A stretch of 64,000 nt of DNA from positions 576,001 through 640,000 of the forward strand of contig CAVXXK010000001.1 in assembly GCA_963765675.1 (NCBI GenBank). The letters are read 5' to 3'. Every line of letters starts with the position of its first letter. The stretch's first letter is position 1. The stretch is from an uncultured delta proteobacterium (GTDB lineage: Bacteria > Desulfobacterota > Binatia > Binatales > Binataceae). A model generated the notes under the pieces. It made no database searches, was not told where the DNA came from, and saw only the letters and a list, made by a program, of their open reading frames with translations. The translations under genes and the position numbers were made by a program. This document shows, one piece after another, positions 10,027 to 16,188 of the stretch.

Positions 10027-10878
10027 ATGAAGACCGATGATCCATCCAGCCCGGCGAGCCATCGCGAGGACCCGCCCGCCGCTCCGTTGACGCTCGAAGG
10101 TTTCAGCATCCTTCATCAGATGTTCAGGATCCGGCGCGCGCCGTGGCGAGCGCTCGCCGCGTCAGAGCGCGCCAGTATCGCGCACGAAGCATCGGCCGCG
10201 CTGCGCCAGATGGGCGAGCGCGAGGATGGCGAGTCGGCCTCGTTCGCGGGCCTGGGGCACAAAGGCGATCTGCTCCTGGTGCATTTCCGCCGCCGCTTTG
10301 ATGAGCTCGTCGAAGCGCAAACCGCTATCGGCAAACTCAGGCTCAGCGATTATCTCGAGCCGACGACCTCGTACGTATCGATGATCGAAATCGGGCTCTA
10401 CGAAGCGACGGTCGCGCTGCACGCTCGGCTGGCGGCGCAAAATATCCGTCCCCGAACACCCGAGTGGTACCGCGAGGTCGAAGCGGAAATCGCCGCGCAG
10501 CGGCAGAAAATCACGCCACGCCTGTTTCCCAAAATTCCACCGCGCCGCTATCTGTGTTTTTATCCGATGGACAAAAAGCGCGAGGGTGCCGACAACTGGT
10601 ATCGGCTCGCGATGGAGGATCGGCGCCGCCTCATGCACGAGCACGGACTGGTCGGGCGGCGGTTCGCGGGCGAGGTCACGCAGATAATCTCGGGATCGAT
10701 CGGTTTCGATGATTGGGAATGGGGTGTCGATTTGTTCGCCGACGACCCGCTGGTCTTCAAGAAGCTGGTGTACGAGATGCGCTTCGACGAAGCGAGCGCG
10801 GCGTACGCGAAGTTCGGTCCGTTCTATGTCGGCGTCAGGATCACGCCCGAGGAAATCGGAAAAATTCTAGCGGCCTGA
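10027..10878 (+). CDS. hemQ: Coproheme decarboxylase (HemQ/ChdC, chlorite dismutase-like fold)
   Basis: GHKGD, FYPMDKKR, NWY, MHEHG, GSIGFDDWEWGV, YEMRFDEASA..FGPF. Confidence 0.88.
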   Translation: MKTDDPSSPASHREDPPAAPLTLEGFSILHQMFRIRRAPWRALAASERASIAHEASAALRQMGEREDGESASFAGLGHKGDLLLVHFRRRFDELVEAQTAIGKLRLSDYLEPTTSYVSMIEIGLYEATVALHARLAAQNIRPRTPEWYREVEAEIAAQRQKITPRLFPKIPPRRYLCFYPMDKKREGADNWYRLAMEDRRRLMHEHGLVGRRFAGEVTQIISGSIGFDDWEWGVDLFADDPLVFKKLVYEMRFDEASAAYAKFGPFYVGVRITPEEIGKILAA

Positions 10879-10934
10879 AGAGAGTCCTCGTCCTAGCGCC
10901 GCCTGCGCGGAGATTTTCGCTCGAATCGCTCGTC

Positions 10935-10957
10935 GTAGTGGCGACTCGCGAGCCGCC
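10935..10957 (+). repeat. GTAG-type REP-like hairpin
   Basis: GTAG-T-GGCGACTC-GC-GAGCCGCC; a related copy lies on the - strand at 27120-27142. Confidence 0.55.
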
Positions 10958-10980
10958 TGCCTTCCCTTGCTCGAGTGGCG

Positions 10981-11337
10981 GAGCAGCACTCTCACCCACG
11001 CGTCACGATGCCTGCGAAAAAACGCAAGCCTCGCGCCGCGCCGCCCTCTCCCGGAGAAGAGCTTTGCGTAACCAATCGGACGGGTGCGCCGGTGCGCAAG
11101 GGCGAGATTCCTCGCGACCTCTGCCGTGCAACATGAAGCATCCGAAACCATACAGGGTGCCTGATCGCGCTCGGAATGACACAAGGCCAGGAGAAATTGT
11201 CATTCCGAGCGCGCGCAGGCAGTCAGATGGGGGCGTGCGTATCAACTGGCGCGGCAGATCTCGCGAGGAATCTCGCCCTCACAGATCGGCACACTTTTCC
11301 GATTGGTTATGCAAAGCTCTCCGGAGGGAGATGGTAT
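10981..11337. mobile_element. Composite repeat: nested-palindrome MITE-like element (11058-11320) inside a CCCTCACCC/CCCTCTCCC-type palindrome
   Basis: 23-bp terminal inverted repeats (22/23 match) at 11058-11080 and 11298-11320, two inner stem pairs, and CCGGAG on both flanks. A near-identical inverted copy lies at 27267-27620. Confidence 0.8.
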
Positions 11338-11405
11338 TTCATAGCTAACGACTCGCTCGATCCGGAGGCGCGTTTGCGATGCGTCCGAGTCCCGCGCGTC
11401 GGAAA

Positions 11406-11711
11406 TCATTTGCGCAGCTTGCCGAGGACGCGATTCACCAGTCCCGCCGCTGGCGGTTTGCTTTCTGGAGCCGGGAGTCGGTGTCCGTCGCGAAGCGCCT
11501 CGAAGGTTTCCTCGACTTCGTCGTCAAGCGGGAAGCGGCCGCTCTGCGCCTTCGAGAAGATCAGGCGTCCGTTGACGATAACGTCGAACTGACCCGATTT
11601 GCCCGCTTTGATTGCGGTCTCTTCGCCGAATCGATCGGTGAGCGAGGCGGCCAGACTGGCCGCGCGCGGTTTATAGCCTCAAGCCGAGCAGTAAAGGATT
11701 TGGGTTGCCAT
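11406..11711 (-). CDS. Rdx family (SelW/SelT/SelH-like) selenoprotein, 101 aa, Sec at codon 11
   Basis: Reads MATQILYCSA-UGA-GYKPRAASLAASL...GKSGQFDVIVNGRLIFSK..GRFP..EV. CxxU motif; the frame stays open for 90 codons after the UGA; SECIS-like hairpin downstream. Confidence 0.88.
11647..11663 (-). promoter_or_regulatory. Candidate bacterial SECIS element
   Basis: mRNA stem GCGGCCA/UGGCCGC with a GUC apical loop; 22 nt separate the UGA (11681-11679) from the loop G. Confidence 0.7.
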
Positions 11712-11754
11712 GGCTTAAGCGTAAGCCCGGCGACGCGCCAATTCAATTCGCCAG

Positions 11755-12318
11755 CTATTTGCCGTTAGGCAGATCGACAAACACGGCGGCGGCCACGACC
11801 GACGACCACAGCCCGTCGCGGTCGCCAATCGCCGATTGGGTGACGTTGCGCGTCGTCACGATTTTGTCGGACACGCGCCATACGTCCTTGCGTTCGTCGT
11901 AGCTTGCGTTGGGATCAAAATCGACGCCCAGGATCGTCGCTAGCATCTGCGCCGCGAGATCTTCGGCATAGTCGCCTGCCTTCTGATCGGTCTCGCCGAA
12001 GCTGTGATGCTCCGAGAGATAGCCGTACTGGTCGGGGTTGGCGGGAACCGCAACGCCGACCGAGGCCGCGATCAGGCGATGCGGCTCGTTGGTCGCATTC
12101 TCGCTCATCACCGCAAACACGATTTGGCCGGAGCTCAAATACTTGAGCCCTTCCTGCTGGCTGAGCATCTTGCAACGCGGCGGGAAGATCGACTTGACCC
12201 GCACCAGGTTGAATTCGGCGATACCGGCAGAACGCAGGGACATTTCAAACGAGGTCAGCTTCTCGCGATGCTTGCCCACGCCCTTGGTCAAAAACACGCC
12301 CTTTGGAAGCGGCCCCAT
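11755..12318 (-). CDS. pdaD: Pyruvoyl-dependent arginine decarboxylase
   Basis: LTKGVG...LTSFE..LR.AGIA.FNLVRVxSIFPP, GYLSEHH, YAEDLAAQMLAT. Confidence 0.85.
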   Translation of the reverse strand: MGPLPKGVFLTKGVGKHREKLTSFEMSLRSAGIAEFNLVRVKSIFPPRCKMLSQQEGLKYLSSGQIVFAVMSENATNEPHRLIAASVGVAVPANPDQYGYLSEHHSFGETDQKAGDYAEDLAAQMLATILGVDFDPNASYDERKDVWRVSDKIVTTRNVTQSAIGDRDGLWSSVVAAAVFVDLPNGK

Positions 12319-12463
12319 CGGTTCTGATTCTCCACAAGACCGCGGTCGCCCCGCGGCGTATTGGTTTAACGATCTCGTGCGGCGCGCGCCGGTATTACAG
12401 GAAGACGCGCCGCACGTACGAAAATCGCAATCGTTTTATACAATCGCGCCCCTGCGCGCTACC

Positions 12464-14140
<1,677 letters not shown>

Positions 14141-14155
14141 TGTCGGTAAACCGGG

Positions 14156-14656
14156 CTACTCGATCACCACGAGCAGCTCGCCCTTTTCCACGGTCTGGCC
14201 CGCCACCACCTTTACCTCGGTCACCTTTCCGGCCTTCGGGCTCTTGAGTTCGTTTTCCATCTTCATCGCTTCGACGGTCACGACGCCCTGCCCCGACTGG
14301 ACCTCCTCACCGGACGCAACCAGTACTGCGACCACGCGTCCCGGCATCCCAGCCTTGATCTCGATCCTGCCGCTGACTTCGCGTTTGTTCGCCGCACGAG
14401 ATGCGCGACGCGCCGCATCGACCAGCATGAGGCGCGTCGAGCCGGTGCGCGACGCGACCACGATCGCGTCGCCATCGCGCGCGACATCAATATCGAACGA
14501 ACGCCCGTCGATCAGGATCGAAAACGAATCTGGTCCGACTTTGCGCACGTCGGCGTCGAAGCGATGCCCGCCTAAGGTAATGGCGAAACTTTCGGCCGAG
14601 ATCTCCTCGAGCTCGATTTCGTGTTCCGCGTCATCAAGAGTCGCGACGTAGCGCAT
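14156..14656 (-). CDS. Biotin carboxyl carrier protein of an acyl-CoA carboxylase
   Basis: AGMPGRVV...EAMKMENEL biotinylation motif; AAAGGA ribosome-binding site upstream of ATG 14656. Confidence 0.9.
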   Translation of the reverse strand: MRYVATLDDAEHEIELEEISAESFAITLGGHRFDADVRKVGPDSFSILIDGRSFDIDVARDGDAIVVASRTGSTRLMLVDAARRASRAANKREVSGRIEIKAGMPGRVVAVLVASGEEVQSGQGVVTVEAMKMENELKSPKAGKVTEVKVVAGQTVEKGELLVVIE

Positions 14657-14673
14657 CAGCATCGATCCTTTCT

Positions 14674-16188
14674 CTATCTCCGAAGCGAGTCGAAGCGCGC
14701 AAGGCTGCGCCACGCCGAGCCCGCCGGTTGCGCGACGCGAGCCGGGACCTGGCCGTTGTTGTGATTCGCGCTCCGCTGGGCCGCGATCGCCGCCAGAAGC
14801 AGCGCGGCGGTTCGCGCGTGATCGTCGCCTTTCGTTGCAGCGCCCGGATGATACTCCTGCGCAATAAAATTGGTGTCGAAATCGCCGGCAATAAACCGCG
14901 GATGCGTCATGATCCAGCGGTGGAACGACAAATTCGTCGTGAGCTCGCCCGAGATCACGAACTCGCTGAGCGCGCGGCGCATCCGATCGATCGCCTCCGC
15001 GCGATTTGCGCCGTGCGCCGCCAATTTCGAGATCATCGGATCGTAAAACATCGGCACTTCCGCGCCCGCGTAGACGCCGGCGTCGTTGCGGATTCCCGGA
15101 CCTTCGGGAAACCGCAACGTCTGGATTTTCCCCGGCGCAGGAACGAAACCCGCCTCGGGATCCTCGGCGTAGATGCGGCATTCGATCGCCCATCCGCGCT
15201 GCGCGAGGTCTTTCTGCTTGAATGGCAGCGGCTTGCCCGCCGCGATTTCGATCTGCGTGCGCACGAGATCAACTCCCGTCACCAGCTCGGTGATTGCGTG
15301 CTCGACCTGGATGCGCGTGTTCATCTCGAGGAAATAAAAGTTGCGACCCGCGTCGGCCAGAAACTCGATCGTCCCAGCGCTGTAGTATCCGACCGCTTTC
15401 GCCGCCTGCACCGCGACCGCGCCCATCTTCTGGCGCATCTCGGGAGTCACGAACGGCGACGGCGACTCCTCGACCACCTTCTGATTGCGGCGCTGGATCG
15501 AACATTCGCGCTCGAATACGTGGACCGTGTTGCCCTGCTTGTCGGCCAACACCTGGATTTCGATATGCCGCGGGCGTCGCACAAATTTTTCGACGTAGAA
15601 ACGTCCGTCGCCGAATGACGACTTCGCCTCGCTCGACACGGTGCGGACGATCGACGCGAGGTCCTTGTCGCTCTCGACCATCCGCATGCCCTTGCCGCCG
15701 CCGCCGGCCGCCGCCTTGATCATGATCGGAAATCCGATCTTGTTCGCGATCTCGCGAACCTGCGCTTCCGTCTCGAGTGTGCCCGGAGATCCCGGCACGA
15801 CAGGGACTCCCGCCGCCGACATCAGCTTGCGCGCCTCGACCTTGTCGCCCATGCGCTCGATCGCCTCCGGCGGAGGACCAATCCAGACCAGTCCTGCTTT
15901 CTCGACCGCGCGCGCGAAGCCCGCGTTCTCCGAAAAGAATCCGTAGCCCGGATGCACCGCGTCGGCGCCGGTTTTCTTCGCGGCCTCGAGGATACGATCG
16001 ATCTTCAGATAGCTTTCCGTCGCCGGAGCCGCGCCCACCGCTGCCGCGTAGTCAGCCTCGCGCACGTGCAGCGCGCCGCGGTCGGCGTCGGAATAGACCG
16101 CGACCGATTCGAGCCCCAATTCGCGGCAGGCGCGAATAACCCGCACCGCGATTTCGCCGCGATTCGCAATCAAGATCCGTTTGAACAT
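14674..16188 (-). CDS. accC: Biotin carboxylase subunit (acetyl/propionyl-CoA carboxylase)
   Basis: ANRGEIA, HPGYGF, GGGGKGM, ERECSIQRR, EMNTRIQVEH, YDPMISKL. Confidence 0.93.
   Translation of the reverse strand: MFKRILIANRGEIAVRVIRACRELGLESVAVYSDADRGALHVREADYAAAVGAAPATESYLKIDRILEAAKKTGADAVHPGYGFFSENAGFARAVEKAGLVWIGPPPEAIERMGDKVEARKLMSAAGVPVVPGSPGTLETEAQVREIANKIGFPIMIKAAAGGGGKGMRMVESDKDLASIVRTVSSEAKSSFGDGRFYVEKFVRRPRHIEIQVLADKQGNTVHVFERECSIQRRNQKVVEESPSPFVTPEMRQKMGAVAVQAAKAVGYYSAGTIEFLADAGRNFYFLEMNTRIQVEHAITELVTGVDLVRTQIEIAAGKPLPFKQKDLAQRGWAIECRIYAEDPEAGFVPAPGKIQTLRFPEGPGIRNDAGVYAGAEVPMFYDPMISKLAAHGANRAEAIDRMRRALSEFVISGELTTNLSFHRWIMTHPRFIAGDFDTNFIAQEYHPGAATKGDDHARTAALLLAAIAAQRSANHNNGQVPARVAQPAGSAWRSLARFDSLRR

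Follow-up and report, generated by a model that had tools for sequence, protein, structure and literature searches.

The segment 11711-11406 on the minus strand of the window (the whole stretch of 64,000 nucleotides analysed here) is in all probability a working gene. It would encode a 101-residue SelW-like thiol/selenol oxidoreductase in which UGA-11 is decoded as selenocysteine (Sec), in a soil bacterium of the Candidatus Binataceae. When TGA is translated as U, the coding sequence covers positions 11409..11711, with its ATG at 11711-11709. The in-frame TGA, codon 11, occupies 11679..11681 and provides the U of a C-S-A-U redox motif, and the true stop, again a TGA, is found at 11406..11408. 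As translated from the minus strand, the N-terminus is M-A-T-Q-I-L-Y-C-S-A-[TGA]-G-Y-K-P-R-A-A-S-L-A-A-S-L. A TAA at 11717-11715 stands in frame two codons before the ATG, so that no start further 5′ is possible. An earlier note on this DNA had placed the ATG, the internal TGA and the stop at these same positions with this same translation, and re-reading of the sequence gives the identical result. It had also remarked that the gene was absent from the ORF track. Indeed, the plain ORF list holds no minus-strand ORF of at least 40 amino acids ending at 11406, which follows from the in-frame TGA at codon 11 under stop-to-stop logic. The position of the gene end is comparable among 20 related genes. 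A scripted tally of the terminal codon over 81 loci gave TGA in 50, TAG in 19 and TAA in 11, with one unresolved. The 50 terminal TGA codons imply that these organisms also continue to use UGA for termination.

The read-through product can be assigned to the Rdx family. It matches the Pfam model PF10262 (Rdx) with an E value of 1.4e-16 and 60.8 bits, for a cut-off of 22.6, over residues 4-68, that is, across the TGA position. The NCBIfam model TIGR02174 (CXXU_selWTH) is also matched above its cut-off (56.7 bits for 34.2). These searches, together with the TGA kept in the orthologues (see below), bear out the initial reading of the gene as Rdx/SelW-like with a CxxU motif, for which an HMM search against PF10262 had been proposed as a check. 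The top NCBIfam model is NF041051 (SelTWH_Campy, an equivalog; E 4.1e-21). Its score of 75 bits is under the curated cut-off of 88, and the protein is thus placed outside that equivalog. The U-G-Y-K run after the Sec position presumably recalls SelW. When a profile of 20 orthologues was compared with solved structures, eight Rdx proteins were matched, including MIEN1, bacterial SelW-related proteins and mouse SelW. The best of them was human MIEN1 (2ljk; E 4.5e-11, profile positions 5-89). As judged from the family match (Rdx, E 1.4e-16) and from the conservation of the TGA, on which this assessment rests, the locus appears to lie beyond chance.

The fold was predicted with AlphaFold2 on the 20-orthologue alignment. 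The mean pLDDT is 81.9 and the values are at least 89 across residues 1-70; the tail, residues 76-101, is of low confidence. The order of elements in the model is strand-helix-strand-strand-strand-helix. C8-S-A-U11 lies between the strand E3-7 and the helix H14-28, and neither C8 nor the Sec position varies in any of 20 sequences. Foldseek returned 2p0g, 2fa8, 2ojl, 2ljk, 3dex, 2obk, 2oka and 2npb as top matches, with target-normalised TM scores of at most 0.87. For 2p0g, 2fa8 and 2ojl, the E values are about 1e-5, the target-normalised TM scores 0.83-0.87 and the rmsd 1.0-1.8 over 74-79 columns. Thioredoxins come after the SelW-related proteins in this ranking, at E values above 0.04 only. 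The predicted product thus matches the solved SelW-related proteins in having a thioredoxin-like fold.

The in-frame TGA is a constant feature of the gene within the family. The Rdx gene was searched for in a sample of 41 genomes, 24 of which belong to the same family besides the window's own. A match was found in 29 of the 41 genomes and in 23 of the 24 same-family ones, and all 25 own-family matches covering residue 11 carry the TGA in frame. Y-C-x-x-TGA-G/K-Y is read in 20 of 20 loci extracted from relatives; one of them (L030) comes from a genome flagged as unpublished (G010), and the count is 19 of 19 when it is set aside. From GTDB species genomes, a separate scan yielded 165 loci, of which the best 80 were kept for analysis. 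C-x-x-TGA is present in each of these 80 further Binataceae loci. At the protein level, the ten codons that precede the TGA are conserved (M-A-T-x-I-L-Y-C) in all of the 100 loci. The earlier note had suggested to look for the TGA and for Cys/Sec pairs in the orthologues. The TGA is there (25/25, 20/20 and 80/80), whereas no such pair occurs within the Binataceae: among the 100 loci (the 20 and the best 80 of 165), a Cys form at the Sec position was not observed, all being Sec forms. This agrees with a remark, in the available part of the article, that, in organisms using Sec, Cys homologues of SelW-like proteins are few or absent (PMC1794560). Outside the family, two weaker matches from the same class show no in-frame stop. 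These two may be Cys forms.

Two side observations concern the way in which the orthologues are recorded. One database relative, P0002, is full length but carries a Gly at the Sec position, its source having evidently translated UGA as Gly. Moreover, in L153 (G014:C1:2991700-2992250) and L154 (G018:C7:42850-43400), which belong to two other genera, the Rdx orthologue is in two frames because of one extra base each. The extra base is found at the same place in both, inside the palindrome TTCGAA (G-Q-F | N-V-x-V-D-G). This coincidence suggests either that sequencing goes wrong systematically at this site, which may be methylated, or that the frameshift is real and shared.

A hairpin of the bacterial SECIS type follows the UGA within the coding sequence. 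On the minus strand it extends over 11647..11663, with a 7-bp stem, GCGGCCA/UGGCCGC, closed by the apical loop GUC (11656-11654). Counted from the A of the UGA, the spacing to the loop is 22 nt (11678..11657). Taken alone, the hairpin has a folding energy of -12.0 kcal/mol (z -3.41) and none of 200 shuffled sequences was as stable. Extra stability was not seen for the 71-nt region around it, which contains 61% G+C (z -0.18, 78 of 200 shuffles as stable). The SECIS of E. coli fdhF has a bulged U; none is evident in the hairpin of the window. In the bacterial SECIS model of bSECISearch, as given in the accessible portion of its description, the apical loop has 3-9 nt and the upper stem 4-16 bp, a G stands at either of the first two loop positions and usually has a G or U after it, the distance from the UGA to the apical loop is 16-37 nt, and the minimum free energy is at most -7.5 kcal/mol (PMC13188914). 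The hairpin lies within this model on all four counts, with a 3-nt loop on a 7-bp stem, a loop starting with GU, a spacing of 22 nt and -12.0 kcal/mol; its difference from the consensus is a loop at the lower limit of length, 3 nt (PMC13188914, same portion). Thus, the 7-bp stem with a GUC loop 22 nt after the UGA that the earlier note had described is recovered at 11663..11647.

Comparison of the loci lends further support to this element. The G and U of the loop (columns 29 and 30) do not vary in any of 81 sequences. Among 77 distinct sequences, pairing is kept in 98.1% of 539 cells. The changes comprise 14 one-sided ones in which a wobble pair is kept and one double change from G-C to A-U; ten cells are unpaired, six of them at the bottom pair. 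No double change had been present among the first 20 sequences. Significant covariation was not found with the 77 distinct sequences, as variation in the helix is so slight that 87 of 500 shuffles do equally well. The constraint is visible at synonymous sites instead. Codons 17-21 (A-A-S-L-A), which form the hairpin, have a codon entropy of 0-0.47 bits and are the five lowest of 30 conserved four- or six-fold degenerate codons. For the other degenerate codons the entropy is 0.49-2.1 bits (Mann-Whitney p = 2.8e-4, a value overstated since the sequences are kin). The case for the hairpin is therefore one of synonymous-site conservation, rather than covariation, as read from sequences that are related to one another.

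The genome, assembled in 16 contigs and 95.6% complete, contains machinery for the use of Sec. selD is recognised with 375 bits and has its own in-frame TGA, as Sec, in an A-A-G-U-A-G-K loop. It is adjoined by selB, a 679-aa open frame with 328.6 bits. Two genes for tRNA-Sec with anticodon UCA are present 115 kb apart, at G000:C1:720125-720216 on the minus strand and G000:C1:835479-835570 on the plus strand. They score 72.4 and 70.3 bits, differ by one base and share only about 106 nt, their flanks being unrelated. Five relatives that were searched have one copy each. A duplication of selC, as in the window's genome, is unusual. The two tRNA-Sec genes are the only tRNAs with a UCA anticodon that were detected in the genome. 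Of the components that the earlier note had listed for a search (selA, selB, selD and tRNA-Sec), selB, selD and tRNA-Sec are thus found, the latter twice, whereas selA is in two frames (see below).

Other genes of the same genome also appear to carry a Sec codon. A heuristic scan returned 133 candidates with an in-frame TGA; 20 were picked by eye for redox-like motifs and compared with Pfam. The scan recovered the Rdx gene but missed selD, and it is no census. Two of the 20 are credible, five have a domain only downstream of the TGA, the TGA probably lying outside the gene in these, and for 13 there is no family. The two credible ones are a GrdB/PrdB-like gene (PF07355) with U-P-V-C, at G000:C1:728777-729658 on the plus strand, and an AhpC/TSA-Redoxin gene with W-U-G-C, at G000:C1:871317-872465 on the minus strand. 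In both, a hairpin with a GU-containing loop occurs 18-20 nt after the TGA. The loops are GUU and CGUGU, respectively; that of selD is GGC. From their sequences, these two are probable selenoprotein genes hidden by an in-frame TGA. Selenoproteins of both kinds are already described in the part of the survey at hand (PMC2398784). The genome gave six matches to molybdopterin domains, none with an in-frame stop, and hence no Sec-containing formate dehydrogenase.

Several other explanations may be considered. That the TGA is a genuine stop, the region being a pseudogene or encoding a shorter product from a downstream start, is hardly credible. It would accord with the public gene calls of the relatives, in which eight of nine fetched database proteins begin downstream of the UGA. 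However, no start codon after the TGA yields at least 40 amino acids in frame in the window, and a shortened product would lose strand 1 as well as the redox motif. The protein-level conservation of the ten codons before the TGA in all 100 loci and a Pfam match that spans the TGA also speak against it. One may also imagine that an altered code, or a tRNA that recodes UGA, leads to the insertion of Cys, Trp or Gly instead of Sec. This too is very improbable. The Gly of P0002 might seem to argue for it but reflects only the code chosen by the source. Against it, the sole UCA-anticodon tRNAs detected are the two near-identical tRNA-Sec genes (72.4/70.3 bits), TGA also serves as the stop of the same gene in 50 of 81 loci, and selB, selD and a SECIS-type hairpin are all present.

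The state of selA leads to another rival, in which the Sec pathway would be broken in this strain by a real frameshift; the strain could then not make Sec-tRNA, and the Rdx gene would be a recent casualty whose translation halts at codon 11. In the assembly, selA (G000:C1:1401804-1403124; L005:2290-2300) is split over two frames, one half giving 358.9 bits for positions 2-267 of the model and the other 194.2 bits for positions 264-443. The cause is one extra base relative to three congeners, ...TTGCCGC[C]GCGAGCC..., near L005:2298. In G005, G009, G003 and G014 the gene is in one frame (573-587 bits), and in a fifth relative it is split across two contigs. Either the consensus is wrong at the extra base or the gene was broken recently; assemblies commonly contain single-base indels as consensus errors. 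Eight public DNA sequencing runs match the sequence, none with half of the sampled words, and the search of public runs found no RNA sequencing run containing it. Four runs (X1-X4), of patchy cover, were compared at the selA site. In X3, one contig of 151 nt bridges the site without the extra base; being about 98% alike, it stems from another strain. A broken pathway is further at odds with the Sec codon kept in selD, with the unchanged Rdx gene, TGA and hairpin, with at least two further in-frame-TGA genes that are intact and with the two tRNA-Sec copies. Loss of the pathway is thus improbable, and decoding of UGA-11 as Sec is the preferred reading. The inference that the organism recodes UGA as Sec, already made in the earlier note, is strengthened by the machinery, the SECIS and the conservation of the TGA; the split selA of this assembly is a qualification to it.

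If Sec is inserted, the following mechanism may be envisaged. SelB carrying Sec-tRNA(Sec) would bind the 7-bp, GUC-loop SECIS located 22 nt past the UGA in the coding sequence, and would deliver Sec to the ribosome paused at UGA-11. The terminal UGA, which has no such hairpin, would end translation. The product would carry a Cys8-x-x-Sec11 selenenylsulfide/selenol-thiol centre on the loop that joins strand 1 to helix 1 in a thioredoxin-like scaffold. The mRNA itself would most likely be transcribed from the gene's own promoter and be leaderless, for reasons developed below.

The genomic context of the gene is well conserved. Upstream, on the same strand, are found genes for the carboxyltransferase, the biotin carboxylase and the BCCP of PCC, followed by methylmalonyl-CoA mutase (MCM) and pdaD. 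The large subunit of MCM is encoded at 12464..14140 on the minus strand (PF01642, 750.7 bits) and pdaD, for pyruvoyl-dependent arginine decarboxylase, at 11755..12318 on the minus strand (PF01862, 193.6 bits). Among the best 80 of 165 loci, pdaD lies at most 2.5 kb upstream of the Rdx gene in 73 and at most 84 nt upstream in 67. MCM is upstream in 77 of the same 80; in loci that lack pdaD, it is the immediate neighbour of the Rdx gene. MCM-(pdaD)-Rdx is thus the standard gene order in the family, and the context, called unusual in the earlier note, is no peculiarity of the window's genome. Downstream and convergent, at 10027-10878 on the plus strand of the window, is a gene of the chlorite dismutase/coproheme decarboxylase family (PF06778, 199 bits); it occurs in 56 of the best 80 of 165 loci. 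In the PCC region, the ORFs 14674-16188 and 14156-15193 overlap, and a second frameshift, in a biotin-carboxylase/BCCP gene, was considered. It would have signalled assembly indel errors, if real. It was rejected, as G005 and G009 have the same open frame of 531-532 aa, which implies that biotin carboxylase and BCCP are two genes.

The region directly 5′ of the gene brings what is mainly new with respect to the earlier note, namely a motif resembling a promoter that adjoins the ATG in 68 of 81 loci. In the window, a putative -35-like hexamer, TTGAAT, is found at 11741..11746 on the minus strand and, 17 nt after it, a putative -10-like hexamer, TACGCT, at 11718..11723 on the same strand, 6 nt short of the ATG. 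Of 81 loci, 68 have the pattern TTGnnn-N16-17-TAnnnT-N4-8-ATG, compared with 7 of 4050 shuffled upstream regions, and the spacer sequences vary freely among the loci. In the window, TACGCT agrees with the consensus at only 3 of 6 positions, and a stricter consensus scan returned no promoter site in 10800-12500. There is no Shine-Dalgarno (SD) sequence upstream of the ATG of the window's gene. Over the 81 loci, 66 have the promoter motif only, 11 an SD only, two have both and two neither. In 11 of the 13 loci that are devoid of the promoter motif, the SD is of the GGAG type. An inverted repeat of 6 bp, GGCTTA-CGCT-TAAGCC, is also observed directly 5′ of the ATG (window 11712-11727, minus strand), where it overlaps the -10-like hexamer; the repeat is not kept in relatives.

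Given a motif that is flush with the ATG in 68 of 81 loci, and an SD that is almost absent from those loci, the gene is more likely to have a promoter of its own and a leaderless mRNA than to depend on co-transcription with pdaD. The gap of 43 nt between the pdaD stop (TAG 11757-11755) and the ATG, from which co-transcription had been proposed in the earlier note, is exact, but the promoter-like motif makes a separate transcript the more likely outcome. We infer from the distribution of the two kinds of upstream regions that most of the family would use the leaderless form and that one sub-clade would use a leadered form. Among the papers retrieved on leaderless mRNAs and SECIS elements, none, judged by title and abstract opening, concerned a bacterial selenoprotein gene.

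As compared with prokaryotic SelW-like proteins (PF10262/TIGR02174), the Binataceae protein shares the CxxU motif, a size of about 75-100 residues, the thioredoxin-like fold, the UGA-encoded Sec and a SECIS within the coding sequence. It differs in being at least 95 residues long in 71 of 81 loci, in a basic tail motif, G-h-h-x-R-h-h-x-K-h, which as a simple pattern is found in 42 of 81 loci, and in the promoter-like motif flush with the start codon. With regard to the mammalian proteins, MIEN1 (2ljk) is the best solved match and mouse SelW (2npb) is also matched. In eukaryotic SelW the SECIS is in the 3′-UTR, whereas in the Binataceae gene it is inside the coding sequence. MIEN1 (C17orf37) has a CxxC motif and a C-terminal prenylation box; the Binataceae protein has Sec instead and an unrelated tail. 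The prenyl tail of MIEN1 is said to tether that protein. It may be speculated that the conserved proline-rich linker and basic tail of the Binataceae protein (of the type G-F-V-N-R-V-L-G-K-L-R-K) tether the CxxU domain to the membrane or to a partner. One may go further and picture a minimal 5′-proximal recoding unit, with its own promoter and a leaderless mRNA, the Sec-UGA coming after 30 nt and the SECIS at about +49 to +65, whose tail-tethered product would perhaps serve the B12-dependent mutase pathway. So far as the literature searched goes, a recoding unit of this kind has no precedent among bacterial selenoproteins. Such a picture, drawn from sequence features, is tentative and on balance rather unlikely.

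For the field, the gene is an ordinary one; few known families of bacterial selenoproteins are more common than its own. In the GOS survey, as far as the available part of the article goes, SelW-like proteins are the most abundant prokaryotic selenoprotein family, with 427 Sec and 56 Cys forms (PMC2398784). The knowledge of selenocysteine decoding is unchanged by it, and the only points of note are the leaderless architecture and the oddities of selA and selC. A literature search linking Binataceae or Binatota to selenoproteins found none, one apparently unrelated co-mention aside.

For the family itself, the finding means that a gene has been missed or shortened in public gene calls (8 of 9 relatives inspected) across a group of abundant soil bacteria. 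It also supplies a clean case of a selenoprotein kept in its Sec form throughout a lineage (100 of 100 loci), Cys forms being absent. Because its SECIS is near-invariant at synonymous sites, the gene lends itself to the training of predictors of SECIS elements and selenoproteins in soil genomes of high G+C content. Finally, if the leaderless start is true, these bacteria would possess a compact natural cassette for the action of SelB and SECIS near the 5′ end of an mRNA.
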